From Bispira polyomma (Eukaryota), in assembly GCA_965649765.1 (NCBI GenBank), contig OZ287756.1, positions 1,178,001-1,242,000 on the forward strand: a stretch of DNA of 64,000 nucleotides, given 5' to 3'. Below are positions 26,182 to 61,099 of the stretch, one piece after another (position 1 is the first letter of the stretch; each line of letters starts with the position of its first letter). The notes under the pieces were generated by a model, which saw nothing but the letters and a program-made list of their open reading frames with translations, did no database searches and was not told the DNA's origin. A program made the position numbers and the translations under genes.

Positions 26182-26509
26182 TGGACAAGGGGCGACAGCA
26201 CTTGATGTCAGTCCAAAGTGGCTGGAAAATTTGAATTATTAAGCCTAGAGAACTCTGGACTCTTTTAGAGGACTCTGCAATTTATGCTTATTTTGGCTTG
26301 CAAAAGTCTATCTCTAGGGGACGTATAATCTTTCTTAATCCACGCACTGCGTGTTTAACTTGTCAGATTTCATTCTGCAAGTTTTAGTCTCTATTTTAAC
26401 ATACGTACCTAGATTTATAAGCATAACCTGCAGAATCCACATTTTATATTTTCCAGAGATCTCAGACATTGTTTAGACTATTTGTAGAAAGTGGATAATA
26501 AGCAAAACG

Positions 26510-27739
26510 ATGCCTAACAAAACAGCGTACTGTAAACAATGTGAAATTGTTCACCAACGACCTGTGGGACGTCAATGTGTGCTGAAAACACCTGTGGACA
26601 TCAATGGCCCGGCGACGAGAGGACGGCAGCGGGTGCAGATCCAGCAGGATGTGGATAAATCCTTGGCTAAAGGCAAGACTAAGAAGAAAGACTCTTTGTT
26701 ACACGAAGCCACGCAAGAGGATGCCGAAGAGGGACGGGAACAGAGTAGTACATTAAACATTATATTGGATAAACTGTTTAAGTTGGAAAGTGACATGAGT
26801 GAGGTGAGAAGGGGTCAAAGGACTGATCTGGTTATGTCAGAGGGGATATCACATAGTTCGCCAGCGCGTCGTAGCTACACAAGGGACACTTCTGAGGATA
26901 GTGAACGGGACTATGATTATAAGCCATGTGACAAGAGGCAGAGAAAACCCCAACCATGTTATGACCCCTCAACCACCAGACCAGCTGACGACACTGACTC
27001 TGACGACGACATCCTACCAAGTAAGGACTTCCTGAAGATGAATGAGCAGATCCAGGCTCAGGTGGACCAGAGGCTGAGGAGTCACAAAGCTAGGTACTAC
27101 AGCTCACCAGATCATGGCAAGAAGCTTAAGTCTGGGTTGCAAAGGACATCTGAGTATCATGTAAAACACATAATTAACTGGCCTCATGAGTTCTGCTACA
27201 ATGTAGCGGGTAAAAAACAGCCAGCCTACGATGAGTTGACCCCTTTAATGTGGTTCCAGGGCTATCTAGGTTGTGTGTATGAGGAAAAGAATGAGAAAAT
27301 TTGTGATAACATGTTAAGATATGGGATGCAATTAATGAGAGATGCATTAGAAACTTCTTGGTATACGCTGAAAAATGCTCACTGCCAAATCCTACTTGAA
27401 ATGGAAAAGGGCAAGGTCAGTTGGAAAAACTTAAGCAAGATACATGAGCTAAGGGCAAGATTGACCCAAAGTATACTTAAGGACAATAACCACCATGAGA
27501 ACTCTCAAAGTACCTCCAACCACTCAAAGAGTAAAACTAAGGGTAATGTTGTTATGTGTAGTGCCTACAGTAAGGGTACCTGTAGTCAAAGTGACAATCA
27601 TGTCTTTGGTAATTTGATACTCAAGCACGCCTGTGCAAAATGCTTCAGTAAGGACAAACAGATTCAGCTCCACAGGGAGACTCAGTGTGGGAAAACCAGC
27701 AGTTATACAAAAGAAACTTCCAAAGGTCCCCACCATTGA
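26510..27739 (+). CDS. Gag-like ORF1 of element 1 (409 aa)
   Basis: Intact ORF with N-terminal CxxC..H..C, GKKLKSG, WPHE and a C-terminal Cys/His finger (CSAYSKGTC..H..HACAKC..H..C); lies upstream of RT. Confidence 0.85.
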   Translation: MPNKTAYCKQCEIVHQRPVGRQCVLKTPVDINGPATRGRQRVQIQQDVDKSLAKGKTKKKDSLLHEATQEDAEEGREQSSTLNIILDKLFKLESDMSEVRRGQRTDLVMSEGISHSSPARRSYTRDTSEDSERDYDYKPCDKRQRKPQPCYDPSTTRPADDTDSDDDILPSKDFLKMNEQIQAQVDQRLRSHKARYYSSPDHGKKLKSGLQRTSEYHVKHIINWPHEFCYNVAGKKQPAYDELTPLMWFQGYLGCVYEEKNEKICDNMLRYGMQLMRDALETSWYTLKNAHCQILLEMEKGKVSWKNLSKIHELRARLTQSILKDNNHHENSQSTSNHSKSKTKGNVVMCSAYSKGTCSQSDNHVFGNLILKHACAKCFSKDKQIQLHRETQCGKTSSYTKETSKGPHH

Positions 27740-28494
27740 CAGCCAATAGTTTCAAGGGTCATTTGGAATAGTAGTTATAAATTGAGATTAGGTAATGTTG
27801 ATTGTGTAAATAAGGTACAGTTTAAGGAAGATTGTGTAGAGCACAAAAGTGCAGGTGTAAAGAATATTAAAGGTAGTGTAGAAAGTAGAAATGTTAATTC
27901 TGTGCTAGTGGCACAAAAACTGTGTACAAGTGTGTTAGTGAATGAAAATAGTGTAAATTCTGTGAATGGGAAGGTCGTGGCCCCAAAGGGTTTCCGTGAG
28001 CCAATTCAGAGAGAAGTGCAAAGCAAGTCCCCCCCCCCCTAGTAAAGGGGTGGGAAAAGCCAGTGTACAAAGTTGTTTACGGCGGGCTTCCCGCGAAATA
28101 TATATAGTACTAACCATGTAATGTGTAAAGATCAAGAAATTGCTAACAAAGTTGACAGGCGTGGTAGTAAACAAGTTGACACCACGGGCATACAAACAAA
28201 ACAGTGTGACACAAAGTTACAGAAAGGTGTGAAAGAACTAAAGTGTATAGAAACCCCCAGTGAGGGGGGGTATGGGGGGGTTTCCTCCTCCCTGCGTCCC
28301 TAACAATCAATTCAGGGCAAACCCCTTTGTCACACTCCAAAGGTGTTCAATCAATTGTGTGTCAGAAAACCAAACAATCAGGCCAAAGCCCCTAATGACA
28401 TTTCAATGTGTAAGGCAGTTGCCAAGGAAAACCCTTACAAAGAAAAGACAGAGTTAAAGGTCTTGGTGTCAAATCAAGTGAAAACTTTGGTTTC

Positions 28495-30020
28495 ATGTGT
28501 ATTTACAAAGCTGTGTCAAGAATTCCTGACGTCAAAAATAGGGTAAAGTTTAATTCACTAGAGCAGTGGGCGGTGACAGCTCATGAAAGAATTAGTGCAA
28601 TGGGGTGTCCCAATTACTTGGGGGCACGCATACATGTCCCTTCTGAATTGAACATGAGGGCCTGGCGCCAAGTGTTACAAGGGGATGGGGATACCCTTTT
28701 GCCTAAGTATCTGGAGTTTGGATTTCCACTTGACATAAAAACGGACAGCTTTGTTTTTAATAGTAAGGTAACCAATCATGACAGTGCATTGCAATTTCTT
28801 GAGAGTGTGGACAAGTACTTTGCCACAGAACGTCTTCACAAATCAATTGCAGGTCCCTTTAATGAAATTCCTTACAAACAATTACACTGTTCACCTGTTA
28901 TGACCAGACCTAAAGATGATAATACAAGGCGACTTATTGTTGATTTCCCCTGGCCCCATGATAAAACTTCTGTTAATAGTGTGGTCACTGAGGGTATTTA
29001 TGATGGGCAAGACTTTGTTCTCACTCTCTTGACAGTGGACACGTTAGTTGATCGAATCAATGAAATTGGTCCTACAGCTAAATTGTATAAGCTAGATCTC
29101 TCACGGGCATTCAGGAGCCTGTGCATTGATCCAAGTGATTATGAATATACAGGTTTGTGTTGGAGAGAAAAAACTTATATAGAATTGGCTGTAATGATGA
29201 GTTACAAGCACAAAACGACCGTATGTGAATGGATGACGGACAGTTTGCGTCGCATTATAAGTAGTAAGCAATACCATATTTGGAACTACATCGACGATCT
29301 GGTTGCCGTGGAAACAAATGATAAGGCAAAAGCTTCCTTTGACCAACTGTACAAATTGATTGAGTATTTATGTTTGCCCATCAATCTGAAAAAAGTTTTC
29401 CCCCCTGCAGAAGAAGTCGTCTGCATGGGTATATTGGTTAATGCCAGAAAGGGCACACTTAAAATACCGAAAGAACAACTCAATCAAATCAAAAATATTT
29501 GTAAGCATTGGAAAACAAAAAACAGCTGTAAAAGGAGAGAATTGCAATCAATTTTGGGCAAACTCCTCTATGTGCACAGATGTGTCGTTCCCGCTTGTTT
29601 GTTCCTCAACCGTATGCTTAAACTGCTGAGGGAGACGTACCCGCGTAAGCAAATTATTCTTACCAGGGAATTGAAGGCGGATCTAAATTGGTTTAATGAA
29701 TTCCTGGAAAACCTCAATGTTTTAATAACTCTAGAGTAAAGCTATGGTGTGACAATGGTGCAGTAGTAGCAGGGCTTAACTCCAGCCGTTTTCATGACCA
29801 GGGGCTAGGGGTAATGGCTAGGTCAATTTGGCTTGAGACTGCAAAACATAACATCAAATTGGACGTAGTCCATAAAGCTGGGGTTAAAAACACACAGGCT
29901 GACCATTTGTCTCGCATGCTAATACCAGGTTATAAAAACATGAAAGTGCAGGATGAGTTGGCCAAAAAGAAATGGTGGGTAGTTAGCCAGGGTGATTTTC
30001 TGTTGAATAATACAATTTAG
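28495..30020 (+). pseudogene. RT/RNase H of element 1 (internal RNase H deletion)
   Basis: LEFGFPL, SPVMTRPK, RRLIVD, KLDLSRAFR, NYIDD, LQSILGKL; resumes as CDNGAVV..NTQADHLSR. Frameshifted upstream linker at 27740-28495. Confidence 0.9.
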
Positions 30021-30032
30021 TTTCCTTTACAG

Positions 30033-30588
30033 GTTCAAGGCTCCAAAATTACATTACCAAGGCAGCCCACTATAGACTGGAATCTGCCTTCACTGTCAGG
30101 ACACAAAGACCTATACCAATTCTACTAGATTGTTCCTGACGTTTGCCATATTCCTGGGTGAGGCCCAAATAACCTCGCTCTGTTTTCTATTGCAATTCAT
30201 GGAGTATTTAGCTCAGCAGGGTTTAAAACCCCCCTCTATACAAAATTATCTCTCAGCTGTGAAATATCATTTCAATTTGTGTAGTTTCCCAGTAGCAAAT
30301 TTTTCTCACCCTCAAATAAGATTATTCTTCAAATCCTTCGCCATGTCTACCCCCTACTCTCCTAGACTAAAGGGTATAGTAACTCTTCCTATTCTCACTG
30401 CTATCATACATCAATCCTCCACATTCCTACATGCATATGTGTATAAAGCGTTGTTTCTCACTGCTTTTTTCGTTTTTTTTCCAATTGTCTAATCTAGTCC
30501 CCACTAGTATTACTCAATTTAATCCGGAGAGACACCGTATGTGTCAGGATTTTGTCTGGGGCTCACCTGGAGTGCATGTAGTACTCAG
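30033..30588 (+). pseudogene. Tyrosine recombinase of element 1, N-terminal part; C-terminus deleted
   Basis: Aligns with the YR of element 2 (RLESAF..T..Y, SIQNYLSAVK, YKALFLTAFF, LSNLVP); frameshifts; fused to repeat B1. Confidence 0.85.
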
Positions 30589-31536
30589 GAAATTGATTTA
30601 AGTTAAACTTAAACTGCTAGGGTGACCATAACTTAAGACAGTGGTCCCCCCTATTTGTGTGTGTAGAGTAGTAAATGTTTAACCACTAATACTTTAACAT
30701 TGCATGTTAGATTTAGACATTTTAATAAATGCCCAATGAATGCTACTTACTTGTGTTGTCAATATCGTGTTTGCCTATTTAATTTCCTGCCCTGCTCTGG
30801 GCCTAGCCCTGTGGACTGTTGGACAAGGGGTGACAGCACATGATGTCAGTCCAAAGTGGCTGGTACATTTGAATTATTAAGCCTACAGTGCCCCAGGGTA
30901 CCAAATATATGAATTAAGTTATATGGACATAACAATTGTGTAACACCATCAAAGACTTGCGGTTAAATTTATTTAGGTCTATGGTTTCTTATATATAGTT
31001 TCGCATAAGGAGGGGGGCGTAAGGTCACCTCCAAGTCTGCTAGCTTGAACGAAGGTGTGTAAGGTCACCCTAAACCAAAGAAGAATGAGGGTTCCATTTG
31101 GTCACCTTAACTTTAAGTTTAAGAATTACTAAAGGTGCCATGAGGTCACCTTAAATTAATTACTAAGAGTTGCGGTCAGACAACGCTGACCTTAAATTAG
31201 TTTGAATGTTGAAATAGAGGTCAGACAATGCTGACCTTAAGTTTTAGTTAGGTAGGTCTCCTGTAAGGTGACCCTACCTTGAGTTTGAGATAATTGTAGA
31301 TTTTGAGGGTATGCCACTTGAGTTTCAGAGGGCATACCATAAAGTATGTAATAAGTTCAAGCTAGACTAAGACTGTAAAAGAGTGCATTATGCACCCAGC
31401 AGTTAGGTTGACCTTATGCCCCCCGGGCAGTCATTGCTCTGCACTGTCCACATTTAGACTTTATTATGGATTAATATATTATATTTTATTATATTTACAG
31501 CTGAGACATAAAGAGCAGTCCACCAAACCCAAGACC

Positions 31537-32522
31537 CTAGGAGTAGTGCTGAAGGGCCGACCTGAAGGAGTCCGCAACCTGAGAGCCAGCCTGAGCCGAA
31601 TCAGTTATATACCTCCACACACAATCCGACGTCCAGGTGCCATGTCGTTGAATGTCCTGTATGTTGACACTATTGTTAAAGGCAAACGTGGCACCTGAAC
31701 GTCAGAAAGCATGGAAAGTAAGACTGGTCTGCCGGAAACCTACAAGCCGCAAGACATTCTTCAGGTGACGCCTTACACGGGTGTCAATCAACGCCTCCCA
31801 GGAACTGCCACGCTTATACTGAAACAGGGGCATGTTGTTACCAGGGGGAGTTAGGGCTAAGACATTCCTCAGGGCAGCTACAGGGCACAGGCTGGAAGAT
31901 GGAATGGCTGGGATAGTCAATAGTTTAATGGCATTGTTTGTCTGCATGGTCTTAGACCACTTAATTAACAAAGTAACATAACCAGGTTTAAAAATTACAT
32001 CACCTCTAGCTAAATGCTTTAAAGGAGAAAAAGTCGCCACAGAGTGGGGGCATAAATTCGACAGTCTAAGAAAACTGAAAAAACTGATCAAGTACACTGC
32101 CTTGAAGATCTGACCCATATATGTGCTATCACACTTAGCCACAAGGGCCGTGAGCAACGGGACATCAAATAAACTTCTGAGCTTAGCTTGTAGCGGTTTG
32201 CTCAAGGCCAGAGCCCTGTTAAAATAGGAGACTCTAGGGTCTGCAAAACACTCTACATTAATATTGTACAGAATACATTTAGCTTTCACTGCTGACAGGT
32301 GGTTAGCAATCTGCGAGGCCGACATAGAATTATAGTTCAGGAACTCCAGGAAACATAGCAATTTAAACACAGTCACCTGAGAAGGGAGCCAATCCATGAA
32401 AGCTCCAAAAGCAACAAACAGCCTGAACATGTTATCATAAGCCCTGGCAGTTGAGGCAGCAAACGCAAAATGCAGCCGTTTGCAAGCCCGACCCGTCAGC
32501 AGTGATTCCACTGGATGCATAC
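31537..32522 (-). pseudogene. Tyrosine recombinase of element 2 with one premature stop
   Basis: FLRLSN (R), KWSKT (K), FHAF*RSGAT (HxxR with TGA at 31702-31704); the frame continues through HGTWTSDCVWRY (catalytic Y) to TAG at 31537. Confidence 0.93.
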
Positions 32523-32556
32523 CTGGAATCACACAAATATAGACATGTAATTAGTA

Positions 32557-35500
32557 TTATATTGTGGTATCAACTTGCAGCAGGGTGGCATCTGCTCGTA
32601 ACCATTTAACTGGGCCTGCCAATTCTGCCAATAGTTGCTCATTGTTGGTGGTTTTATGCCAACGTGACAACAAATCTGCAATTTTGTTTTTTACACCCAT
32701 AATATGAATAACCCTGATTTCGATGTCAAATCTGCTGGCCCACATGTAAATATTACGGGTATAACAGGCCAAAACTGGATCCTGTGTCCGACCACTTCCC
32801 AAGACACTGACTACCGCCTGGTTGTCACACTTAAACAACACTTTTTTACCTTGCCAAACACTGGACCACAATTTGAGGGCTACAAGGATGTTAATCATCT
32901 ATAGTTCAGCAATATTATCCTGAGTCATATTCTGGGGAATATCTAGTTTATACACTTCATTCCCACAGATGCCCCCCATGCCAGTTAGACAGGCATCTAG
33001 TTCAACCTGAGCATGTACGGGTGTATGCAAGAAAAAACTCACCCTGTTATACTGTTTAACAAATTTTGTGAACCAATTAAGGTCCTGCTTAAACTCACTA
33101 GTGACATGAAAGGTTACTTTGCCATTGTTATCACGTAGTAATTGTAACATTCTGTTGAGAAATACTCTAGCATACTTGATGCATTTAGCTATATATAAGA
33201 GTGAACCTAGTAATGACTGCATGTTACATATGAGGACATTGTAGTATGTTAAGGCACTCTGCTGGAGTGATCTATTTATAGATTTGGGGAAACCCCTAGG
33301 CTTCTAGAAACCGGTTCTATTTTGTTTCTGAAGGTTATTGAAGTTGTATTCATGTGTGTATCTCATCTCTGGAATGTCCTAGCGATTGCTTACATATTCT
33401 AGAGCCTTCTCTAGCAGTTGTATATATAAGGGTTGACAGCCTTGCCACAGACCAGAGAGTAATTGAGCAGAGGTGCTATATGAATTGCTATATGAACTGC
33501 TATACATTTCTTTGTGGATATAAACTGATTACTACATATGTTTTTATGGTGAACTCATTGGAGTGAACTAGACAAAAGTTGTGAATCTACCAGAGATTGG
33601 ATTAATTGCATATTGGATATTGTTTGCATCCTGGACTGGATAGCTTAGTTGTGCAGATTCTCTGGATATATACATTTTGTGTTCGTGGACACTGAACAGA
33701 TAACAGGATACAGGCATTGTGTGGACATTGAGCGGATCTCAAGACAGATTGCTGGATACAGTGGACAAACTTGTTTTATTGTTACTTATGTCGACAGGAC
33801 TGTGGTCAGGTCAGATTGGTTTTTTGATTATTGTATTATTGTGTGAACTATTAAGGGTATCTCAGTTGACTGTAATTCTGTAATTGTTATTTTATTGGTT
33901 AAATAAATTTGTTAAGTGAAATTTTTTGTCTTTTCCTGTTACAACCTCAAAGCAACCGGTAATTGCTACCGCGCTTGCTCCCGTGACCGTAACACTGCAA
34001 TTCTTTCTTAGTACAGTGAGTTTTGTCTTGCCAGGAAACACATTTTTCTCTGATTTCACCCAATTTTTCATCAGGTATTGAGTTAGTAAATTTCTCAGTG
34101 TCAATAAGGATGCCCAGACACACTACTTGTGTGCTGGGAGCCACCAATTTTTTACTGCTAACGGTGAGACCGAGTTCTTGCAGTAACGTCTGTAACCGGT
34201 TATAGCTAGAGAAAATTTTACTGGGCAAATTAACCGCAAGAAAATCATCAATGTAAAAATTGTGGATATTATAGCCCTCTGATCTCATAATGAACCTAAC
34301 TGCGTCAGAAATTCTTTGAAAAATCGTTGATCCATTCTGGTAGCCGAAAGGTAGGCACTTATCTACATAAAAACCCTTCCATTTTAAACCAAGCAGATTA
34401 ATGTCACCGGGGTCAATAGGGACGTGCCGGAATGCCCGACTTATGTGTACCTTATAGATATGGCAGCCTCTGCCCAACTTAGTGACCTCACTGGTAATGT
34501 TATCAATGGAAGGATACGAGAGGAGAAATTCTGTATTTAAGTAAGAAGTGGGAGAAACCCCCGCATTAACAGATTGGCCATGTGGCCAACTCAAGTCAAC
34601 TATTACACGCCTATTGGCCGAGCTCGATTTATTCCGAGTCATCATTGGCGAGCAATGTAAGTTTTTGATAGGGGGGTATTAAAAGGCCCTAAAATGGCCC
34701 CAAATTGACATTCTTCATTTAGATACATTTGGACATGCTCAGGAAAACAATTAGCTGAACTGTGGTTAGCATTCTGTGACTGACTTATGTTATCGCAACA
34801 CACATCCAAAGGGAAGCCATATTTTACCAATAAGGGAAGCTGCCAGTCCCAGTACTGGTGGAGATATTTTCCCCACTTATCAGCATTCAATTGTGACTCG
34901 ACAGCCAACTGAAGTCCCTGAAAGTTATGTCTACCATCTTTCCGTAGTTTGTTGTGCATTTCGAAAACGCTAAGTTCATGGTTATTACCCACATCCCAGA
35001 TTTTGCACCCAAGTGTGGACAAAGGTGCAAAGCCATATTCAACTGCAGTTTGAGTTTTCCATTGAATGTGTGTAGCGTCTGAGCGAGCCTTAACTAACAA
35101 CTCTCGTTTGTTGCGTTTTTGCTTCAACTCAAGGGAATACTTGTCCCCACAGTCCTTCGTGACACTCACCCGAGTTACATTATTTACATTCGCTTTATCC
35201 GACGTAGAGCCAACCTTGGCTTTTTGCTTATTTACAATATTAACACTGTTTGTTTCCCCTTTTCCCTCCCCATTGCTGCCGGGTTCAACAATGGTTTGGC
35301 TGAGGGGAAGAAATCTGTTGTGTGATACAAGTTCACCCCCCACCTCTAGTGTGGGTTTATATTGGGAGACCCTTTTATTCACACCAGTATGGGGGGCCCT
35401 TCGTCTCGACTCACTACATTCATCTTTGTTCCGCGTGGCCGAGACAAAGGGGGCGACCCCATCCATCCGAGCGTTCACACCCTTAGTGCCTTCAATGCTG

Positions 35501-35814
35501 ATATTTTTACATTTTTTGATACTCTTAATTGGTTTGAACTTCAATACATTTTTGACAAATTTTGTAGTGCATTGAGGAACCTTGGTGTTACTTTCTGCGA
35601 CGTGTTTAGCAATATTGTCATTGTAAAACATTTTACTTCCTGCCGAAACCGCATTACTGTATGTACAGCAAGCCTTTGTGCCCCTATTATACATGAGCAT
35701 TCTATTTACAACAGGTTTACCAAACAAATGCTGTTCCTGAAATTTGGAATTATAAATAACTCTGTCCGAATATTTCTTACCCACTGCGTTGACGCCGTGG
35801 GCCCTTAGTTTTTT
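32557..35814 (-). pseudogene. RT/RNase H of element 2, interrupted by a solo LTR
   Basis: KYGFPL, RRVIVDLSWP, LPFG, YIDDF, LDACLTGMGG, IAEL*MINI, CDNQAVV, NKIADLLSR; frameshift near 34645. Confidence 0.92.
33222..33994 (+). mobile_element. Solo LTR (copy 2) inserted in the RT of element 2
   Basis: TGTTAC...GTAACA termini, 5-bp duplication CTGCA (33217-33221, 33995-33999), TATA-like tatatataag at 33421 and AATAAA at about 33902. Confidence 0.9.
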
Positions 35815-36082
35815 AAACCTTTTTGGTACATGTACTGTTCTTATGGTTACCCCCGCAGGTCTCACACACGTGTTTGAAAAACGTGTTTCCTGTCTTATGA
35901 CTAGTAGGGAACTTGCATGATCCATCCTGAAAGAATTTACAATTTGCATTTTGCTTGGCAAAGCCACTACCTTTACTAGTACCACGGCCACTACTGGTAT
36001 GAACCACACTATTATTTGACACGTGCCTCTGTGCATGGGCCCTTCTCAAACGGTCTAATTTTTCCACGTCGTACCACGAAAG
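35813..36082 (-). pseudogene. Gag C-terminus (Cys/His finger) of element 2
   Basis: LRRAHAQRH..CKFFQDGSC..H..HVCETCGGNH..C; homologous to the gag of element 1 and of fragment 3. Confidence 0.85.
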
Positions 36083-37351
36083 CCTTATAAACCCCCATTT
36101 TTCACTCTAGGGCCAGCAATGGACTGTCCCTCGTTGAGTCAAAGTGTCAGAAAAAGGGCGCCAAAAGTCCCAGTGGGGCCCCACTCCTCAGTTGTTAAAA
36201 GGTGTTTGCTGGAGAAGGAGCTTTTAGAACCCACCCTCCTCTCCCTTCATGTATCATAGTTTCAACATCCTTAAAACATGTGTGTATTGTATATTACGCG
36301 TATCTCAAGTATGTACTTTTGTGTATATTTTTGAGTGAAATATGGCCGAAGAATGACCAAAGAGAGAGAGACTGATGCTACTAGCAACAACAACTGGGTC
36401 GTGTGTGTCACTCCTGGAGTGTGTAGCGTCAAAAAACCTGGAACGTTCATACATAAAGCATGTGTAAAACATGAAACAAGGGTAATTGACATTGGCAGTT
36501 GTCTTACAAAGATTAAATGTCATGTGTATGTTGGTTAGCTATTTATGTTAGGTTTAAAGGTTTAAATAGTATGAAGTCTTTGAAGTAGATTTGACAGAAG
36601 AATATGTAATGGTTTTAAATGTTTTAGTTTATATATGAAACTCCTCCAGTAACAAATGTAATAGAACACTTGCAACTAATATAATTAGCTTTGCTCTTGT
36701 TTTAAATGATTTACATGCTAGTTGTATGTTATTCTCTCTCTCTTATACAAGTAGTTTTTAAAATTTTTATGTGGTAATTTTTACTGTTATTGATTGTTTT
36801 AATTTTTCTTAGTATATGGTGTTATTGATAATTAAGGTCATAGTTATGAGTATAATGGCATTGTGCTACTTATATGTTATATTATAGTTATGAATATATA
36901 TTAGATATTTAAAGTTATAGTATAAACTCTAACTGTAAATTACGGTAACCTTATGTTCTATCTTTAAGGTAACCTTAACATTAATTTAAACTGAGGTGTT
37001 TAATCTGTAACTAAGGTGGCCTTAAGTCACCTCACCTCTAGTAATTAAGTTTAACTTAAGTTTGAACTTAACATAAGTGTAATTAAAGTTTAAACTAAGG
37101 TGACCAATTTTTGAAATTGATTTAAGTTAAACTTAAACTGTTAGGGTGACCATAACTTAAGACAGTGTTCCCCCATATTTATGTGTGTGGAGTAGTAAAT
37201 GTGTAACCACTAACACTTTAACATTGCATGTTAGATTTAGACATTTTAATAAATGCCCAATGAATGCCACTTACTGGTGCTGTCAATATTGTGTTTGCCT
37301 ATTTCGTTTCCTGCCCTGCTCTGGGCCTGGCCCTGTGGACTTGGCGGGGGC

Positions 37352-37620
37352 ATTTAGTTAACAATTGAGATGATTTTGATTCTCAAAGATACCATTTAAT
37401 AATGATAGTTTAACTGACCCAGAGTATGTAAAGATGAGAAAAGATCTAAAAAATGAATTAAAATTAAAGTACACATTGTCAATAAAAATACTCTATGGGA
37501 CTATGTAAAGTGATATTACAAGTCACCATATGTGCTATGCAAGTACAAGGGCAAAGCAAAACAGAAAACATTAACAAGATTTAGTCGTAAAAATAAATGA
37601 ACTGGAACAGAATAACAATA
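37352..37620 (+). mobile_element. L1/Tx1 ORF2 linker remnant, continuing at about 39280-39620
   Basis: Degenerate FNN.SLTDPEYVK and LWDYVK; later RSKAK.ME..EK.TK, in the order expected downstream of the endonuclease at 26000-26181. Confidence 0.55.
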
Positions 37621-39260
37621 GTTACTTCGTCTTAACGTTACTTCTAGCTTACCGAATTTTAATACAATACACAACACAAAATTTATTAAAATCTTGTTTA
37701 TGTCACATTTTATGCATTAACATTACTGTATATCCTTCTTCCAATTTTACCCGATTTAGTCTCTTTTTTGTGTTTTATATATGTACATTTAAGTAATTTG
37801 CCTATTATCGTCCATTCCGTTTTGGCTGGAGTGGTTCGTACAGCATAGCGCTGTGTACCACATGTTAGGCACTGTGTATTAGGTGTTTACATTTCCTGGT
37901 AGTATTTGCTGGTATCGCTTGCAGACACAGTAAATATTTTTGTCAATTTTGTTGTTTTTCTTTCTGAGTGGGAGTGGGTCGTACAGCATATTTAGCATTG
38001 TGTACCGTATATTTGGCACTGTGTCTTGGGTTGTGTTTTATACTCCTAAATATTTTGTTCAATTCTGTACCTTCTCGATCTCTCCACAGCTTTTTATACC
38101 ATCGACCATGGCTTACTCTTTGACACCCTAAAACAGTAATTTGGTGTTGATAGTACTGTTCCTGACTGGATTAAATCATATCTTGCTCTCAGAACCCAAA
38201 AAATCAAATTGGGTGACCACTTTTCATTGTCTTTTAATCTACCTTTTGGAGTATCCCAGGGGTCAGTTCTCGGCCCTCTACTTTTTACCCTCTACACTCA
38301 TTGTCTCAGTGCAGTCATCAATAATCACAATGTTAAACATTACATGTGTGCTGATGACACTCAAATCTATCTCTCTCTTAACCCCCATAATGCCGGAAAC
38401 AACCTGGATTTACTTGCCAACTATCTCTCCTCAGTTCAGGCGTGGATGAACTACTCTAAACTGAAATTAAACCCAGATACAACTGAATTCATCCTAATTG
38501 GCAACAACAAACACAGTGAATACTTAAGATCACTTTTCCCAATCACACTGCTAGGAAATGAGATTCAACCTTCAGACCAGGTCAAGAACCTAGGTGTCAC
38601 TATCGACCCTGCTTGTTACTATCACATTCGGGACCACAAAAGAATCAGAAATTATCTGTCACTAGATAGTGCTATAACTGTGGGCAACACTCTTGTAAGT
38701 AGCCGCCTTGACTACTGTAATTCTCTTTTATATGGAACTAATAAGTCTCACATAAACAAGTTGCCGTCCATTCAAAACTATCTATATGGAGTCCTTTTTT
38801 TAGGTATATGTAATGATGTAACTCCATACCTCAAGCAACATCATTGGCTTCCAATTCATTATCGAATGCTGTTTAAAATGCACTAAACCACCTTTAAAGC
38901 TCTCAACAGGCTCACTACCTCGCTACTAAACTCTCCTTCAGAAGCCTTTAAAGGGGAAAGAGACTCAGTTTCCTCTAAAAAACCACCAATAGACTTGGAT
39001 CTAGAACCTTCTCAGTCACCGCCCCCTATGTTATGGAACAGTCTTCCAGTTGAGCTTAAACTGCTTGAAACACTTTCTGGATTTTGGAGAAAGCTTAAAA
39101 CCTATCTCTTCAGGCTCACCTATCTGCCATAGTCGTCTCTCTAGGTGCTGAAACATCCATCCTTACAACCTGGCTATGTTTTTTATTTTTCTATTGGCTG
39201 ATTGATTCTGATGTTGTGCCTTAGGAGATGCGCAATAAGAATTTACAATACAATACATTT
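37620..39260 (+). mobile_element. L2/CR1-type LINE: 5' region joined to RT C-terminus, internally deleted
   Basis: GVSQGSVLGPLLF, CADDTQIY, KLKLNPD, SRLDYCNS, HWLPI; (TACAA)n tail near 39244-39256; 37820-38030 resembles 44560-44610. Confidence 0.85.
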
Positions 39261-40107
39261 TTATACAATAATTTTTCAGTGTAAGTATTCAAAAATTAAA
39301 TTAGGAAAAAACATAATGTGATCAAGTTAAGATCAAAGGCCAAACGGATGGAAGATTAAGAAAAAATCACAAAATGCATTAGAAAATTAATAAAGAAAAC
39401 AAATTTACGTCTCAGGAAAAAGTAAATTGAGGAAGAGGTACTTTTTTTACAAAAATCTATACACAACAAAAAGTGTCCATACTTCAGAGTTGCAGAAAAC
39501 AATCCTCAATAACATTCTGTGAAGATATAAACATTGTTAATGCAAAATTTAAAAAAAGATAAACTTAACTTACCTTATATATCATGGATATTTAAAATTT
39601 TAACTAGAAGTGCCTTGAATTTGTTAAAGAAATACAAAGTTAAGTCATATGATGTACAAGTCTGTCATCAGCTTTATTTCATGAACAGTGTATATGGCAA
39701 CACCCCGGTGTTGGTGTATTCAGTTCTGGGTACCAGTCTTTTCTTTGTCACAGTCAATTGTGTTGTACTATATAAAGCTTTGTATTTCAAACTTCCCGCC
39801 CTTTCAGAAGTTGTCTACAGAAGCAGCAACTTCAAAATATTAGGCGGGGATTTTAACAAAGAGTTTTTGTGTTTACAGTTTGTTTTAACTGTTCTTAGTC
39901 TTTTTAATTAATTCACTCTTTGAAAAAATGCCACACATAAGGGAATATAGTGGCACAAAGTGCACGGGTAAACATGCCAGGCTGGTTGGCAGTAAAAATA
40001 GTGTAAGAATGTTCAGCTTGAAGAGTCCGTGGTTGAGGTATATGTGTCTAATGACAACTTGTGTGAAGCAGTCAGTTCGCCGCTCCTGATGGCTTGGCCA
40101 CGGAAAC

Positions 40108-40930
40108 ACTAGTATAAAGAGTCAGGTCGAGCAAAGGCTTGTTCAGTTAAAAGAGCTTTATGAAAACCCTACTACAGGTAAGAGTAAGTCACAAAGGGGA
40201 GGGGGTGTCGATGTGTCAGTGAAACGGGTAGTTGAATGGCCTCAGAACCACTTCCTGTCAGAAATTTCATAACTAGGCCTAGTTATGATGACTTGTCTCT
40301 AAACCAGTGGGTATGCAGATTTACCTGCATTATTCAAGACGAAAAATCCCCGGAAACCAAAGAAATAATTTCAGACTACATGGTTGGTCTTATGGAAGAC
40401 TCCCAGGATTATACTTAGAAAGCTGTCGTGCCTTAGAAAGCTGTCGGTTTTGACTACCACGTAAATTGATCAACTTAAATGGAGGAAGGTTGCTGAGTTA
40501 GATCACCTTAGGCGGGCTCATGCACAAAGGCATGTAAACAGTAGTAACAGTAGTAGTAGTTTTCAAAGGGGGCCACCATGGTTAATGAGGGCTCGGCTAA
40601 CTGTAGATTTTTCAGGGGGGCACATGTAAATTCCCCAACAGTCACAAGACTGGAAATACGTTTATTAAACATGTATGTGAAAGTTGTGCTGGGGCTCACA
40701 AAAAGTAGTAATTGTAGCAAAAAATTGGCAAAAACCTGAGGGGCCACTGCATGGTGCAGTGGCCAACAGCAGAGTTTATAGTAGGGAGTTTTAAAGGACA
40801 GACTTTCAGGCATTTCAATTGTTGGACAAGCAGAGGTAAACAACCTAAATTTAGTTCTAGTAATGTGGTCAAACAACCTGGTCAAAGCAGCAAAGTTTAA
40901 CACTCCAAGTGTGAAAACAAACAATTATAT
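40108..40930 (+). mobile_element. Decayed gag fragment of a third DIRS-order element, same family as element 2
   Basis: QVEQRL..GKSKSQRGG..WPQNH..RPSYDDLSLNQWV..LMEDSQD; LRRAHAQRH; CKFPNSHKTGNTFIKHVCESC. Confidence 0.85.
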
Positions 40931-42706: not shown

Positions 42707-43917
42707 TTAGCCATCATGAGTGACCCTGTCTATTATTGCACACTGTTGTACCGTGGTATGGTTTACCAGACCCTCACACATCCTGCTATTTCCCAAAACC
42801 TGGTAGACACCGGCTAGTTCTCGGAGTATCCCAGTCACAAACACAGACTCTAAATGTACAAATTTGTTCTCATACCTATCGCAGGCATCCAGGATTTTAC
42901 TTGCTGCCCCAGCATTCATAACATAGCTGGGTCCATGAACATGTGTTGGAAACACTTTACCTGGAAATACATTTTCTGGAACAAACATCTGCTGGTTACA
43001 TTTCAACCGTACAGGGCGTGACTCACGAACAACACGTCCCATCACAAAATCATCTGGTGGTGTCTCTGACAACATGTCTATCAGTAGTGGTAGGTTTAAG
43101 TGGCTTTTGTCCGATATTTTGACTACATAGTTAGTACCTCTATAAATGTTAAGGAAGGTCTTCAGCATCCACAAGGATTTATTAGTCTGATTATAGAAGG
43201 AGTTAATAAAGTCCCCTTGTAGGATGTCTCTGTACTTCTGGCTTTCTCTAATTATCGACTCATGTATGATGCCATCACTGGCAGTACCAAGAAAGAAGGC
43301 AGTCTTCACATCTGCTTTTCTGTGTCTACCTGGGAAACATAATATAATGTCTCTGGAAATACATTTGCAGCATATATTGACAGGTACTTCACTTGTGGAG
43401 AAAATCAAAGCAAGGTCTACTTTGTCGGGTATGCTCCCTAACATATCTTTGTTCACCTAATGAAACACTATACTAGTTGATACATAGGTCAAAGTTAAAA
43501 ATAACTAGTCTCCCAATTGAGCTTAGATCACTTGAAACCCGTTCAGGGTCTAAGAAAAAGATTAAAACAAATTCCTCCTCCCCCAGCATCTTCGGCTAAT
43601 GGTAGAACTCTATGTCTTCATCTAGTATATTAGTCACTATATACACCCACTGAGTGATAAACTGAATCAAGGTGTTACTACTACTCACCCATTGAAGTAT
43701 TCCATTTGCTTCGGGATCTCCCATTTTTCCAAGAGCTACGTATTTTCTCACGAGCCTCAAAGTTATTTGGCTCAGACACAACAGCCACCAATACGGACAA
43801 GCCACTGCTCTGTTGGATGCTCCTGCTGTTTAAAACTATACTTAAAATCCAGAAATTGACAACAATAAAAGCTATTATCATTAGAGTCTGTATCAGCTTA
43901 CATATCTGAAACCTCAT
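42707..43917 (-). CDS. GT31 beta-1,3-galactosyltransferase-like protein, paralogue 3 (exons 43917-43689, 43329-42707; about 283 aa)
   Basis: TM helix; REKIRSSW, ESQKYRDILQGDF, FPTHVHGPSYVM, LESVFVTG; same phase-1 intron after WNT.. as the other paralogues. The DxD position reads KISDK. Confidence 0.88.
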
Positions 43918-44539: not shown

Positions 44540-47500
44540 ACCCTATTATCGACTACTCCATTTGGCGGGAGTGGGCCGTACCGCATATTTGGCACTGTAT
44601 ACTGCATATTTCGAGCTTGTTTTGCTATATTTTATATCTTATTTAATTAAAAATCCTTTTCTATCGATTTTTCCTTGACTTAGTCTCATTTTATGTTGTT
44701 TTTGGTTGTGAGGTTGTACTTAGCTTAAGGTCAGGCTGTAGTGTGGGGTGTTAGGGTGTCCGTAAGTCACCCATGGGACGAAGAATTGTATAGTGAGTGG
44801 TAGGGACATATTTGTTGAGGCTCCCTACTGTTGAGTTTAGTTTAAGGCTTTTCCTTTTGTACAACCTCACCAGTCATGTTTCTCCTTAGGGTTCTCCTTT
44901 TTTCGGCACTGTTTGCTGTGGCACTAGTGCACCCTTGAGTAGATCACATATCTACTACTCCACTGTCTAAAGTCGGAAAGAATTTTCTCATACACTTGTT
45001 CATGTCATAAATGCTCAACTTCTGTTAATGGAAGAGGTCTAGTGTTGTTACTCTTATTGGTCGGTGATGTATTCCTTAACCCTGGTCCTGTCATGCTGGG
45101 TGTGCTAAATGCTAGATCTGTATAGAACAAAGGTCCACTTCTTGCTGATATTTTGACATTGTATGGCCTCGACTTCCTCTGTGTTACCCATGTCCGTCTA
45201 TCTGATACGGATAGCGTTCTACGGTCTGTTACTCTTCCTGATATTGTGTTTTCTCAAACGCCTCATCTTTTATGTATTGGTGGCAGTGTCGGTTTCTTCA
45301 TCAGTTCCTCCTTTAGACAATACAAAATAGAGTCTTCTTCTGTGCATCAGTCCTTTGAAAACATAATGGTGTCAATTGGGCTTCATGGCCACTCACTGTT
45401 GCTTGCCTGCGTCTATTGCCCCCCAGGATCATGTACCTGTAATTTTTTAGAAGAATTCATGTCTTTTTTTGGTTTCCTGTCATCTATTAACAGTTCGTAT
45501 CATATCTGTGGTGACTTTAACATCCATGTTGATGCACCAGTTGGTGAGGGTCATAAATGTATGACCTTTCATGATTCGTGTGATCTAAAACAGTCAGTTA
45601 CACAACCTACCCATCTGCATTTTAACATTCTGGACCTCATTCTATCTCCTATTGATCAGGATACTATTGTGATTTTATATCTGATCATGCATTAGTAAAA
45701 TGCTCAATTGCCTCTCTTTGGATTTGAATTTGAATTTGGATATTTAACGTCTACTCTGGTACATGACTTGGGTGATGTTCTCGATAAGCATGCACCACTT
45801 GTATCTAGAATGTCAAAGAAAGATTCTGTGCATTGGCTTTGTGATTCATACCGACAGGCAAAGTCTCTCAGGCGCCAATATGAAAGAACTTGGTGAATTT
45901 GAATTTGAATTTTGATATTTAACATCCACTGTAGTACCTTTAAGTAGGTTATAGTGGGACGGGTAGTTGAAAACGCTGGAGGAAACACTGCATACAGTCG
46001 GTCAAGGTTCTGCAGAGAAACCAGCGGCCCACAGTAAGGAACTACCACCTTTCCCACATAGGCATCGAACTCACGCCGCCCAGAGGTGAGAGACCAGTGA
46101 TTGTAAAGGAAAGAACTTGGTGAAGGGCCAAGACTCCACTGAATAGAAGTCGACTTCGTCGCCATATTGCTCGGTGCAATGTACTTGCTGACGAGGATAA
46201 GTCGGAGTATTATGGCAAACTTATCTCAGACAACAGTCATAACTCCAGAAAGCTATGGCACGAGCTGCGCAAGACCCTAAATATGGTTTCCAATGTGGCA
46301 TACCATCCCATGAATCTGATAAGTCATTAGCTGACAAGTTTGCTTCCTATTTTTCAAACAAAATTAAGAAAATTACAGATACTTTTGTTCTTTCTGGAAT
46401 TAAAAATGATGTTTATCCTCTTTCTGATCCACCTGAAAATTCTGCCTCTAAAGATGCTGTTAATAAAATAATTAGTAACTCACCTACGAAATCCTGCATG
46501 TTGGATCCATGGCCAACATCTCTCAGCAAAGAATGTAGTGATATACTTCTATCCATTACAAAGCTTATAAATTGCTTATTGAGGGACATGTACTTGACGG
46601 TTTTAAAAAAGCTGGGGTTACTCCTTTTATTAAGAAGGCTTCTCTTCCGATTGATGACCTACAAAACTATTGCCCTGTATCTGGTCTTAGTTTTATATCA
46701 AAACTGGTTGAACGTGTGGTTGCTAAGCAACTGTTAGATCATATCCTTGTCCGCGACTTAGACAACCCACATCAGTCTGCATGCAAAACAGGTCATTCGA
46801 CTGAGACAGCTCTTCTGTCCATAAAAAAATGAAGTTCACCTATCTTTGTCAAGAGGCGAACCTACTGCCCTAGTGTTGCTCGACCTTTCTGCTGATTTTG
46901 ACACCATTGATCATTCCACTTTTCTCAGTTGTCTTCAGACTTGGTTTGGAGTTGGGGGCTGTGTTCTTAAATGGTTCACTTCCTACTTAACTGATCGTTA
47001 TCAGTCGATAAAAATTGGTTCTACTTTGTCAGATCTTTGTAAACTCTTGTTTGATGTTCCCCAAGGTTCTGTTTTGGGCTCTCTGTTGTTTTCGTTGTAC
47101 ACTGCGCCCTCTAGATTGGTGATTGGCAATCTTTGGCTCAAAACGACAGAGGGAGAAGTTGGAAGCATGTTTTTCAGTTGACATCCTAGGTGGCCCTTTC
47201 AGCCCAGCTGATTCTGTCAAGAACCTGGGTGTATGGTTCGACTCTGACTATTCCTTTTCTAAACACGTTCAGAGTGTCTGCAAAAGCTGTTTTGTGAACC
47301 TCCGGGACTTTAGACATGTCAGGTGGTTTCTCACTTATGATGCTTCTATACTTGTAGCCAATGCTTTTGTCAGTAGTAGATTGGATTACTGCAATTCACT
47401 TTTCAGGAGTCTCTCAAAGTTTAATTTACGCAAATTACAATGCATTCAAAATAGTGCAGCTAGAATTGTTTCAAACACCAGTCGATACACCAATATAACT

Positions 47501-47995
47501 CCTGTTCTTAAGAAATTGCATTGGCTCCCTGTTGAACAGCGTTCAGTGTTTAAAACAGCTACACTTGTTTATAAGTTTCTTCACATTGGTTTTCCAAAGT
47601 ATTTTGCACCATATCTTTACTGTTACAGTAGTTCTTATAATACCAGGTGCAGTCACAGTGGTAGTAATTTCCTTGTAGTTCCAAAGTTTCACCCGTCTAC
47701 TCAAAAGTCAGTTAACAGTTTGGTCACAGCTTTACTTATGATGCTCCCATTGTTTGGAATGCTCTTTCTGATGTGATTCGTGTGCCACTAGCCTCTTGTA
47801 GAAAGTAGCTTAAAACCCAATTGTACACCAAAGCATACCCACTTTAGTCTCAATCCTCCCCCGGAATGCTCTGTGGTGCTTGATCCTTTTTTTGTCCCTG
47901 GATATTGAAATTGGATTACTATCTTTTATGCTATTATGCCTTAGAGTCCCCTTCATTAATGGGAGATTAAGCGCTATGAAAGTCTAATTACAATT
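44540..47995 (+). mobile_element. Near full-length decayed L2/CR1-type LINE ORF2 (endonuclease plus RT) with N-terminal 2A-like motif
   Basis: GDVFLNPGP, LNARS, VYCPP, GDFNIH, LDLI, LDPWP, HSTETALL, LDLSADFDTIDH, VPQGSVLG, SRLDYCNS, LHWLPV. Many stops and frameshifts; the YADD segment is deleted. Confidence 0.92.
45898..46108 (-). mobile_element. 5'-truncated SINE with a 16-bp target-site duplication, inside the LINE
   Basis: gaaagaacttggtgaa at 45882-45897 and 46109-46124; minus-strand B box gagttcgatgcc and (ATTCAA)n tail. Confidence 0.85.
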
Positions 47996-49544: not shown

Positions 49545-50881
49545 CTAGCCGCTGATGCAGTACCCAGTGAAGGTGGACCTATTAAAGCCAGCGACGTAGT
49601 TTGGAGTGAATCTGTTGACCAGGTAGACTCTGTCACCTCTCTTACACGGATGCACAATGGCTTGACAGGTGCTTACAATGATGTAATACAAGCGGTTACT
49701 ATTGTAGGACAGAGTGTCAGTGATAGGCTTGTTATTGATGAACAACTGGCCGCCACTCCTGTAGTACGAACCGCCACTATCAAGAGCCCCAGAATACAAG
49801 CAGTAGATGAAATAGTAGATACCAGATTTGGGGACGACATATTCATATTTCTTCACATCAAAATTATTACCAGCGTCAAACAGAACTGATTTAAATCTCA
49901 GCCTTGAACCAGGTAGCAAATAGAGCGTCGAATCAGGGTGAGTTGCAGTAAATGCAGTCTTTTTGCATGCTGCTTCAACTAAACAGTCAATAAAAACAAC
50001 ATTTGGTCATTACACGGGGGGTGCTGTATCTAAACAGTGTTGGATGTAATCAGCATCTCATTAAAGTTATTTCCTTGAGGTTTTAATTTTTTTTAATTTT
50101 TACTACAGGATGTATATATTGTTATTTATATATTTCTATAATTCTGAAACTATTTCTTTCCTAGTTTTAATATATTATCATTTACATCCAACACCATTTA
50201 TATCCGGCAACTTAAAATTGCAAGACTGTAGGATATGATGAGAACTATTATTGCTTAACAGTATAGTCAATTTGAGATAATAAGTTTTAGTTGTGTATGT
50301 GATATTAGTACATGTAATTAGTAAGTAAATTAGTAAATTAGAGCAGAATATATACTTTTACATGAAACGTCTTGGTGTTTAAAGCCATAATTCCACTCCT
50401 TTACTTGTCATTGCTCCTTTACACTGCTAGCTAATCATGTCACAATATGTTGTCAATCTTTACCCTTTAAAATGAGTGGATTGCCAGAACTGGCTTTACT
50501 GTCACTGTCCAGTTGAGAAGAATAAACTCCCACTATAAATCAGGGTTTTTTTAAAGTCAACTAAAAACCTACATTTCAACCCATATTCCTCCATAGTCTC
50601 TAATAATCGACTACCGTTTTTGGAGAATCAACAAGTAGAGGATGCTTTATCAGATTGGAGCTTTGCAAATCATTTAATTATTATTATTATTGAATTAGAA
50701 AAAAAAAATTTGGTTGCTATTTAAAATAATTACGCCTGTAATCAAGCATAGAGTTATCATTTGTTAGTAATATATTATTCACTACACTGAAGTCAGCCAA
50801 AGAGGAAAACCATGCCACCTTACCTGACTGGTAAGTAATAAAAGAGAAAAGCAAGAGAGTGGTCACTTGGATGAAGGCCAT
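49545..50881 (-). CDS. Secreted globular-head C1q-domain protein (exons 50881-50824, 49978-49545; about 163 aa)
   Basis: Signal peptide MAFIQVTTLLLFSFITYQSVEA, then gC1q motifs AFTA, F..VLFDAGNNFD, VPKSGIYYF, GDRVYL, STFTGY; phase-1 GT-AG intron; AATAAA at about 49483-49488 on the minus strand. Confidence 0.9.
50020..50210. mobile_element. MITE in the C1q gene intron
   Basis: Imperfect inverted repeats of about 30 bp with core gtgttggatgtaa / ttacatccaacac. Confidence 0.6.
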
Positions 50882-58800: not shown

Positions 58801-61099
58801 TCATACTTGATATAAAATACTTTTTTTCTATGCTGGTCAGTTTCCCTGTTTAGACCATGGGAGTGTCTTGAGTGCAGATGGGCAGGATTGGTATTTTTAT
58901 TTATTCATTCAGGCGACTGAACACCTGTTGGGTAGCAACTTCCGGGGGATAGGTGCATGGAAATGTGGCTGGGGAGTATACCTAGACAGTCACAGGGCTA
59001 GGGTAGTTCATCCAGGGTAGCCCCTGCTTGTGGGCAGTTTCTGAGAGGGCTCTAAGGTGGGTAGCCAGGAATGAACCCTGCACCTATTTAAAAGTTATTC
59101 ATTATCCATTAATTTAACATTCATTTCATGGAGTTGTTTCCTTCCTTTTTCCTGTCTAAATCCACGGGTTGGGATATAGTGCTAATGGCAGGTACCCTTG
59201 GGTTGGGACAGTCGGGTAGATTTCGGCCGGCTGTATCTCAGCTTTGGCCAGGATTCAGTTTCCTGTGGCCTCCTCACTGTAACCACTCTGGGTGATACTA
59301 TTACCGATAGCACTAAGGGTGGTATTATGGGTTGGGAAATGGTTATGGTAATGGTAGGGATTTATTGTTGGGATATTAGTGTATTAAGTGGTGTAGATTT
59401 GTATATTGTAATATGTTAATCATACACATATGTAATGGTTACGCATCTAGGTGTGTATGATCATTTAAAGATAAATATTTTAATAACCTTATTAGTTAAT
59501 TTGGTCAATACTAAAAAGTTAGTAAACCTGACACGGAGTTTCTGACACGGAGTTTCTATTTTGATTTAAATGTTATTATAAATTATTGAATTACCTGGAA
59601 TACCTGGATAAATTGTTGTGGATTATCACAGTACCTTTTAATTTTGTGTTGACTATATTTTGTGGATTATATGTGTTATCTTTACAAATGTTCCTATATG
59701 AAAATATATTCCCCTGTAAATTTTAACCAGGAAGCTGTGTGGATGTGTTTCAGACCACACTTCAAGACTAGTAGTATCAGGGCAGACCAAGTACAGGCTT
59801 GGCTCTCTCTCCACATTATTGCAAGTAAAATAGGGTTGTATCACAAAGTATCATCTTTGATTATTCTCATTATTAATATACACGTATATATATTTATATA
59901 TATAACCTATGATAAATTTTCTGGATTGGTTATTAATTATAAATTTAACTTGTTACTACTTAATTGGGGAACTCATCTTGCAAATTCAATGTTTGTTTGT
60001 TTGAATTATTCACTAGATTGTTATTTTTATTTATCATCCGTTTGGGACTGTTCTATTATAATAAATAATAACCTGACACATATTTTGCAATCTTTCTGTT
60101 TTATCGTAATCATACATAAGTGAAATACCTTAATATAATTTCAAATGCTTTTAATAATGTTCTTTCTCGCATTACTTTTTGTGGTTGTTGTTATTAATCC
60201 TATACTTTTTGCTTTTATCACTGGATTTCTTTATTTCTTGAATTTTCTTTGATATTAAATTCTGGCACCTTTGGTTGCATTTACTAAATTTACTCACCCT
60301 TACATGATTTATGTATATGTGGTTTGTCTAAATCTATGTAACATTAACCAACCTTGTAGTTAGACAGGCTTACATGGACTGATGTGGATTACATTGACAG
60401 AATATGACTAGCACACACCCAACGTCACATTTTCCCTCAGTTTATGGTAATAATGTCAATAGTCCAAACATCAGCTTTTAGACTGGCAGTAAAAGTGAAG
60501 ATTGTTCAAAACTCAGGGTAAAGTACCAGATGTTATATGTAGGTAATTTCCAAAAAGTATTTGTAAATTTAATGGCAGTCATAGAACTGACGACCAGATA
60601 TTTAAACATATCTGTGAGATTTGTGATGGTTCACAAGTGTGACAGCAAAAAGGCTACAAAAACTGAATGCTCACTGCAGGCATGCTGTGCAACTTTTCCA
60701 GAGTTGGAGCAATAGTAAATATTTAATGGTAAATAATACTGGACAGCAAGTCTATCAAAGCAGTACTAATCGTCTAAATTGTTTTATCAATTCTGTATTT
60801 AGTAGTGACAAATGATTGGGCCAAAAACAATTTATCTAACCAGTCATTGAGGATTAGATTCTTGCATTTTTAAATAAATCTATGTTACTTGTTTTTTTTA
60901 TATAAATAATATGACAATACTCTTGCCTAAACATACTTCCACTATGATAACGGAAGTATTACAGTCTGTAGACAAGCAGAATTGTAACTATTTTAATTAC
61001 ACAAAATTATGTATACTTAGCAAGAGTGATGATTTAGCAGAATTGGTGTCATAAATTGTTTTCCTCGATAAAAATACATAAAAAATGTAACTACAATTC

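Follow-up and report, generated by a model that had tools for sequence, protein, structure and literature searches.

Predicted −1 frameshifting at the gag–pol junction of Ngaro-type retrotransposons in Bispira polyomma and its alternation with in-frame UGA stops

A 64,000-nucleotide (nt) stretch of DNA from Bispira polyomma (GenBank assembly GCA_965649765.1, contig OZ287756.1, positions 1,178,001 to 1,242,000 of the forward strand), referred to below as the window and numbered from its first letter, contains decayed tyrosine-recombinase retrotransposons of the Ngaro type (order DIRS), designated element 1, element 2, fragment 3, and fragment 4. A signal conserved in this family at the gag–pol junction, centered on the slippery heptamer A AAA AAC, most likely directs canonical −1 ribosomal frameshifting for the production of Gag-Pol, a reading to which we assign a probability of about 0.85. 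The first-pass annotation of the window had proposed the same from element 2 and fragment 3, and the relatives analyzed here support the proposal within two limits, namely that conservation of the stem downstream of the heptamer is patchy beyond the nearest families and that other lineages carry a TGA-type junction. Since the relatives keep either a slippery signal or a single stop codon at the gag–pol spot, these elements likely depend on frameshifting or stop-codon readthrough for their reverse transcriptase (RT). A broader scheme, in which Ngaro elements recode Gag-Pol with at least three lineage switches between an invariant A AAA AAC and a leaky stop of the UGA-CUA type, and in which a spliced recombinase is fused to the first half of Gag, is favored with distinctly less assurance.

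The gag–pol junction in the window and in related elements

The junction features of element 2 and of fragments 3 and 4 are as follows.

35814-35808, minus strand: slippery heptamer A AAA AAC of element 2, out of gag phase in this copy
35802-35779, minus strand: putative stimulator hairpin of element 2 (predicted fold), starting 5-6 nt past the heptamer
35813..36151, minus strand: 3' remnant of the element 2 gag, with the terminal zinc motif, 5' part missing
32557..35814, minus strand: pol of element 2 (N-terminal region, RT, RNase H; Pfam RVT_1 E 4e-11, RVT_3 E 3e-5)
40730..40764, plus strand: fragment 3 junction, with A AAA ACC (one mismatch), TGA, a 5-nt spacer, and a 10-bp stem
40099..40739, plus strand: gag remnant of fragment 3, with several frameshifts and a donor-like CAG/GTAAGA at 40178
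60658..60689, plus strand: fragment 4 junction, with A5-C, TGA, and then CAC TGC AGG CAT GCT GTG (H-C-R-H-A-V)

In element 2, the spacer TAAGG(G) separates the heptamer from a hairpin of nine pairs, including a closing G-U, plus one G-A mismatch, with a fold of −14.8 kcal/mol (z −4.0) that none of 200 shuffles equals in stability; among the 44 exact AAAAAAC of the window, only this one is followed within 40 nt by a fold of −10 kcal/mol or lower. The hairpin reads H-G-V-N-A-V in the pol frame, the family motif being H-C-x-x-A-V. In fragment 3, AAAAACC at 40730-40736 is followed by TGA and by a 10-bp stem without mismatches at 40742-40764 (−19.5 kcal/mol, z −3.2; 2/200 shuffles as stable), the hairpin loop having one base fewer than that of the other copies. 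Both signals agree in sequence and fold with the first description of them, and the −1 peptides reported there, KKLRAH for element 2 and KNLRGH for fragment 3, are correct by translation. Fragment 4, a fourth gag fragment missed at that stage, has the same junction anatomy as the other copies; its decayed gag lies at 57887-58264 and 60351-60760 on the plus strand, split by about 2 kb. A strong donor-like G/GTAAGA, in phase 1 of the pol frame, occurs at 35780 (minus strand), at the 3' foot of the element 2 stem, and is not seen at the equivalent place in fragments 3 and 4.

All window copies of the element are nonfunctional as written, and the earlier estimate of one mutation per copy was too mild. 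Element 2 is 5'-truncated, its pol is disrupted by a frameshift in the region of 34670 as well as by an insert of 778 nt, high in copy number, at 33216-33993, and stops interrupt its RNase H and recombinase; the gag of fragment 3 has undergone at least three frame changes, and the pol-like peptide past its stem is in another frame. The element 2 copy also lacks one base in the stretch from the last Cys codon to the gag stop, which as written is TAA (35815-35813) and shares the first bases of the heptamer. A 569-nt contig from the same organism, at a depth of 96 (single-copy contigs, about 14), aligns with one gap to 568 window bases, 35278-35845, so that the common form of the family is one base longer somewhere in this interval. 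The extra base would be placed at the junction, because a base added further down would split pol motifs that share one frame in element 2.

Among relatives, the sequences themselves show where the heptamer lies, in which phase, and that it is conserved; they also show a −1 pol in intact elements, a close gag stop, and no conserved ATG for pol. A search with RT yielded 57 related loci, chosen regardless of their junction, of which 25 were typed by a gag zinc motif upstream; the other 32, short or decayed, show no zinc motif by the pattern used, and inspection of them by hand found the heptamer in L024, L030, L041, L050, and L051 and an in-frame TGA in L006 and L029. Pol is open up to the gag end in 19 of the 25 typed loci, in the −1 frame in six, in frame 0 in 13, and in the +1 frame in none. 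All six −1 loci, three of which are near-identical copies, carry A AAA AAC in phase, so that, as proposed, pol lies in the −1 frame behind the heptamer in every heptamer locus with an open pol. The in-phase heptamer occurs at the gag end of ten of the typed loci, forming about seven groups below 80% RT identity, and a gag-TGA arrangement in the remaining 15, with pol in frame in 13/13 open cases; the six typed loci with a broken pol have the heptamer in four cases and TGA-C in two, and the two junction types are mutually exclusive throughout (25/25). The gag stop follows the heptamer by 0-11 codons, and gag and pol overlap by 37-70 nt in the six intact heptamer loci. As controls, in-phase A AAA AAC is absent from 12,540 RT/RNase H codons, and only 3 of 71 internal K-N pairs are written in this way. 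A pol in frame 0, which had been named as a sign against frameshifting, is never found in the open heptamer loci and is the rule in the 13 open TGA-type loci; frameshifting is thus not an order-wide rule, since an in-frame TGA stands at this place in 15 of the 25 typed relatives, as well as in element 1. A +1 shift, the arrangement of element 2 as written, was rejected (0/19 intact loci), and so was TGA as a sense codon, given pol open reading frames (ORFs) of 510-1095 codons without any other TGA. No matches were obtained in a word search with the element 1 gag, and no loci from the gag alignment against viral and metagenome contigs or from the RT alignment against viral and prokaryote genome contigs.

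The protein data point in the same direction. With the 97-residue gag end as query, 106 homologues were recovered, each representing a 50% cluster; the terminal zinc motif is present in 73, and in 59 of those 73 the tail has at most 20 residues. Of these short-tailed proteins, 11 end in K-N-stop and 26 in K-N-x-stop (37/59 together), which bears out the expected K-N ending in natural relatives; it occurs in 42 of all 106 homologues, against internal KN at 126 of 18,835 positions. In gag phase, A AAA AAC encodes K-N and requires an A-ending codon before it, and a residue without any A-ending codon precedes K-N in 1/37 terminal and 35/126 internal cases. Among 120 Pol homologues, four in the clade of element 2 have M-[YC]-x5-K-K-L at their start, which is precisely what a gag C-x6-K-N-stop gives when read at −1. 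The motif H-C-x-x-A-V, which can be encoded by a stem CACTGC..GCAGTG and in the window is the stem itself, lies within the first 25 residues of 8 of the 120 and nowhere in the other 81,984 residues; its spacing is fixed wherever K-K comes before it, and four proteins of the gag set that run on into pol also carry it. Two further proteins, P0239 (a cluster member) and P0173 (a Pol match), have gag and pol residues fused within a single frame and are seemingly damaged copies.

The slip, like its efficiency and the part played by the stem, is an inference from these features. When ribosomes translating gag reach A AAA AAC, the hairpin would be positioned at the mRNA entry; the smaller part of them would slip by −1 and read K-K-L/R into pol, giving Gag-Pol, and the remaining ones would terminate within 0-11 codons, giving Gag, the hairpin 5-8 bases downstream probably aiding the slip. 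The gag–pro junction of mouse mammary tumor virus also uses A AAA AAC. The heptamer A_AAA_AAC is among the shiftiest in eukaryotes (PMC5009743), and the junction shares with retroviral and Ty3/gypsy −1 frameshifting (PMC5009743) the in-phase X XXY YYZ, a 5-8-nt spacer, a GC-rich stem, the proximity of the gag stop, and a −1 pol. It differs from these systems in that the host element integrates by a tyrosine recombinase, in that the heptamer is invariant across distant families, and in that the predicted stimulator is a simple hairpin, pseudoknots not having been searched for. Neither a protease nor a DDE integrase domain was found in pol.

Weighing of the frameshift signal against other explanations

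Several observations weigh against the frameshift signal as interpreted above. An intact signal is present in no window copy; the pol of element 2 as written sits in the +1 frame, and the extra base of the multi-copy contig is localized no finer than 35278-35845. Among the homologues, 22/59 short-tailed Gag proteins end without KN, and four Pol proteins begin M-[R]-H-C at the junction. The least secure part is the stem. The statement that the stems differ in sequence and keep pairing stands in that, over the three window copies, 26 of the 28 stem cells are paired and two double changes separate element 2 from fragment 3; it falls short in that the stem of fragment 4 is decayed, with a fold not better than shuffles (z +1.4), and in that this covariation, over three sequences only, is matched by 154/500 shuffles. 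The fold test on back-translated peptides gave p 0.051. Among distant heptamer loci, folding of the 60 nt downstream is good in L033, L043/44, and L046 (z −2.2 to −4.2), weak in L009 (z −1.6) and L036 (z −1.2), and absent in L019 (z −0.4) and L021/28/35 (z +0.9). Stem conservation is therefore to be graded: element 2 and fragment 3 have a strong stem, near families keep the motif, and distant loci give a patchy picture, so that the stem is a likely feature of the window clade and an unproven one in general.

The best of the other explanations, an improbable one, is that Pol is translated from an ATG of its own, whether by leaky scanning, from an internal promoter, or by reinitiation downstream of the gag stop, the heptamer being incidental. 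In keeping with it, an ATG overlaps the gag stop in L021/28/35 (TGATG), a Met stands at the junction in P0169, P0203, P0220, and P0235, and the junction of Tca2, a Candida albicans element, has a minor promoter and directed no readthrough in yeast (PMC2194720). Nevertheless, such junction ATGs are by-products of GAA TGA or TGA TG, and the position of the first Met beyond the heptamer varies, falling at codon 3, 72, 201, or 258 in intact loci and at codon 38 in element 2, and in L019 and L036 downstream of the conserved G-F/W-P motif. A conserved pol ATG, named beforehand as evidence against frameshifting, was looked for at the pol start and is absent, and an independent start leaves both the fixed frame and the fixed phase of the heptamer unexplained.

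Splicing that joins pol to part of gag, through a conserved gag donor and an acceptor near the pol start, is rather less credible still. The elements do seem to splice, since an acceptor is conserved ahead of the recombinase and a donor-like site stands about 600 nt upstream of the gag end, and a pyrimidine-rich acceptor-like site lies within −30 to +90 of 12 of 33 junctions; nevertheless, the acceptor-like sites are phased to join a phase-1 donor to pol in only 2/33, none of them in a heptamer-type element, and splicing requires no fixed gag–pol frame. A chance combination of an A-rich, lysine-rich gag tail with a short GC hairpin in decayed elements might be suspected in a window of about 36% GC, with so many exact AAAAAAC and with every copy departing from the ideal, but it is very unlikely, being largely refuted by the family data, that is, by the protein, codon, and fold controls and by the exclusivity of heptamer and TGA in 25/25 loci. 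The weakest and least probable candidate, in keeping with the run of six A's and the −1 pol, which one added base would fuse with gag, is polymerase slippage of the kind known from viruses, in which some transcripts gain an A, because slippage is blind to codon phase and would not fix it, whereas the run keeps X XXY YYZ phase in 10/10 DNA cases and reads K-N in 42 proteins, and the stem at ribosome spacing would be left unexplained.

In-frame UGA junctions and expression of the recombinase

The other junction type and the recombinase gene rest on these features.

27737..27745, plus strand: gag stop TGA of element 1 followed by CAG CCA (stop-CAR-YYA), predicted readthrough junction
L001, L004, L005, L007, L008, L011, L013, L015, L017, L022, L023, L025, L027, L039, L056: gag-TGA-pol loci, mostly TGA-C or TGA CTA
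31702..32550, minus strand: tyrosine recombinase ORF of element 2, in which the AG at 32524-32523 is predicted to be a splice acceptor of phase 1

Sister lineages, including element 1, probably read through a single in-frame TGA at the gag end, and readthrough of a gag-UAG-pol junction is familiar from murine leukemia virus. In all 13 frame-0 open loci the single TGA lies 3-17 codons past the zinc motif; the next base is C in 12 of the 15 TGA junctions and the next codon CTA in 9/15, and the pol and recombinase stops of the same loci, taken as a control, are TGA in 3/48 and TGA-C in 0/48. Established readthrough contexts are UGA-CUA(G) and stop-CARYYA (PMC4132726), and these are shared by the TGA loci (15/15 TGA, 12 TGA-C, 9 TGA CTA) and by element 1 (TGA CAG CCA), the difference being that the stop contexts within the element 1 clade are more varied. 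Downstream structure was not detected at the TGA junctions (z between −1.9 and +2.2), and readthrough would thus be driven by context alone. Tca2 resembles the TGA-type loci in its single in-frame UGA between gag and pol and, unlike Ngaro, is a copia element (PMC2194720); since its junction directed no readthrough in yeast, the layout alone is no proof.

Element 1, which had been described as showing no clear signal, is predicted to have a readthrough-type junction: behind the TGA CAG CCA the gag frame stays open for 100 more codons and the other two frames close within 14, and its RT clusters, with moderate support (87/88), with six gag-TGA-pol loci of the frame-0 kind. An RT tree of 28 rows requires three switches of junction type, each imposed by branches with good support, and an approximately unbiased test rejects a monophyletic frameshift type (p 0.0001). 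The tree has no outgroup, so that the order of the changes is not fixed; it leaves out L030, L033, L039, L041, L043, L046, and five of the protein rows, and the frameshift labels of its protein rows derive from peptides, not DNA.

The recombinase is probably made from spliced RNA. A frameshift at the pol–recombinase junction was rejected, an in-phase heptamer before the pol stop being found in 0/24 loci with a recombinase match, and the recombinase frame relative to pol is −1, 0, and +1 in 9, 8, and 7 of these loci, respectively. Past the pol stop, an acceptor with at least nine pyrimidines in 12 occurs in 23/30 elements, compared with 8/84 coding control windows, and 25 of the 28 elements having a site carry it in phase 1 relative to the recombinase frame. 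By a simple ad hoc score, a donor-like site in phase 1, located 568-695 nt upstream of the gag end, ranks among the best three in 18/33 junctions and first in 15; because phase 1 is common in coding DNA, what counts is its positional clustering. Poulter and Butler 2015, as quoted in PMC13003380, proposed that the recombinase ORF of Ngaro is reached by frameshifting, in contrast to the elements described here, which have a splice acceptor and no heptamer at this junction. The identity of the recombinase appears to follow from its Atlas neighbors and from homologues below the Pfam cut-off: the element 2 ORF has no Pfam or PDB match, its Atlas neighbors at 0.96 include Phage_integrase clusters (the nearest clusters with animal records being mollusc and cnidarian), and homologues found by tblastn in the related loci match Phage_integrase weakly, below that cut-off. 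An Atlas search with gag returned unnamed clusters only. An extra long ORF follows the recombinase in L010 (4198-5129), L021 (3429-4225), and L032 (3675-5276), and in Xenopus, Ngaro elements are reported to carry an SGNH hydrolase ORF downstream of the recombinase (PMC9210276).

Ngaro identity, literature, and other features of the window

The repeats and body of element 1 are listed first.

26477..30588, plus strand: element 1 body, with gag, decayed pol, and truncated recombinase (acceptor-like AG at 30031-30032)
26182..26250, plus strand: repeat A1 of element 1, 69 nt, 93% identical to A2 at 30820-30888
30589..30817, plus strand: repeat B1 of element 1, 229 nt, 94% identical to B2 at 37113-37341

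The window elements are Ngaro-type elements, as judged by gene order (gag, RT/RNase H, tyrosine recombinase), split repeats, and the absence of a methyltransferase domain. The Ngaro layout within the order DIRS is A1-[ORFs]-B1A2B2 (PMC8547959, PMC3783388), without a methyltransferase domain (PMC3266345); element 1 has the order A1..B1 A2 [insert] B2, with B2 displaced by a 6.2-kb insert containing element 2. Split direct repeats were not found for the truncated element 2, and direct end repeats are present in L004, L005, L007, L022, L023, and L032 among 22 loci checked. No methyltransferase match was obtained in the pol of P0108, L007, and L019 or in the window pieces; pol ends soon after RNase H, leaving no room for such a domain before the recombinase. 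A DIRS1-like identity was rejected, as inverted terminal repeats, an internal complementary region, and a methyltransferase domain are lacking. Element 2 with its flanks occupies 30889-37112, between repeats A2 and B2 of element 1, and inverted short repeats with a GGTCACC motif on both flanks (31098-31122, 37083-37107) possibly represent a further mobile element or a target preference.

Regarding earlier work, the view that such a signal had not been characterized for DIRS-order elements holds in so far as no gag–pol slippery site, stem, or leaky stop for DIRS or Ngaro was found in the literature searched, a scope outside which lie Goodwin and Poulter 2004 and Poulter and Butler 2015, which may mention a −1 overlap; it needs qualification in that frameshifting has been suggested in print for the recombinase gene (PMC13003380). 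The portions considered of PMC3783388, PMC3266345, PMC6681497, PMC8547959, PMC9210276, PMC7192593, PMC4157794, and bioRxiv 2022.06.16.496473 contain no junction signal, so that, relative to these papers, the slippery site, stem, and leaky gag–pol stop are seen here only; DIRS and Ngaro are not named in the portion considered of PMC5009743, and the one paper checked that combines readthrough with DIRS refers to transcription. The mechanism itself is of a known kind, and what is gained is that the site is defined exactly, that it alternates with UGA readthrough, and that the evidence favors splicing over frameshifting for the recombinase. In the literature searched, expression of the start-less pol and recombinase ORFs of DIRS-order elements had been guessed and not tied to signals, and the published frameshift guess is argued here to sit at the wrong junction for these lineages. 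The present elements supply exact, testable sites and a natural series where frameshift stands in for readthrough and vice versa, together with a rule for recognizing intact animal Ngaro copies, according to which a gag ending in K-N or in an in-frame TGA-C is not damage.

Other features of the window include the 778-nt insert in the pol of element 2, which is very high-copy, is absent from sister contigs, and has an 88% identical copy in opposite orientation at 6582-7341. Galactosyltransferase-like genes or exons surround the retrotransposon cluster (7487-8212, 24180-25676, and 42707-43456), the Pfam Galactosyl_T test covering 24978-25673 only. An exon resembling HSP70 family 12 was recognized by eye at 18320-19429 (plus strand), with no Pfam match, and a C1q-domain exon lies at 49545-50006 (minus strand), with a Pfam match. 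The galactosyltransferase and C1q genes, and the mollusc and cnidarian records nearest to the recombinase, give the window the look of DNA from an invertebrate. Decayed pieces of non-LTR (long terminal repeat) retrotransposons occur at 22176-23126, 38140-38886, and 45126-47776, with an RVT_1 match for 38140-38883.

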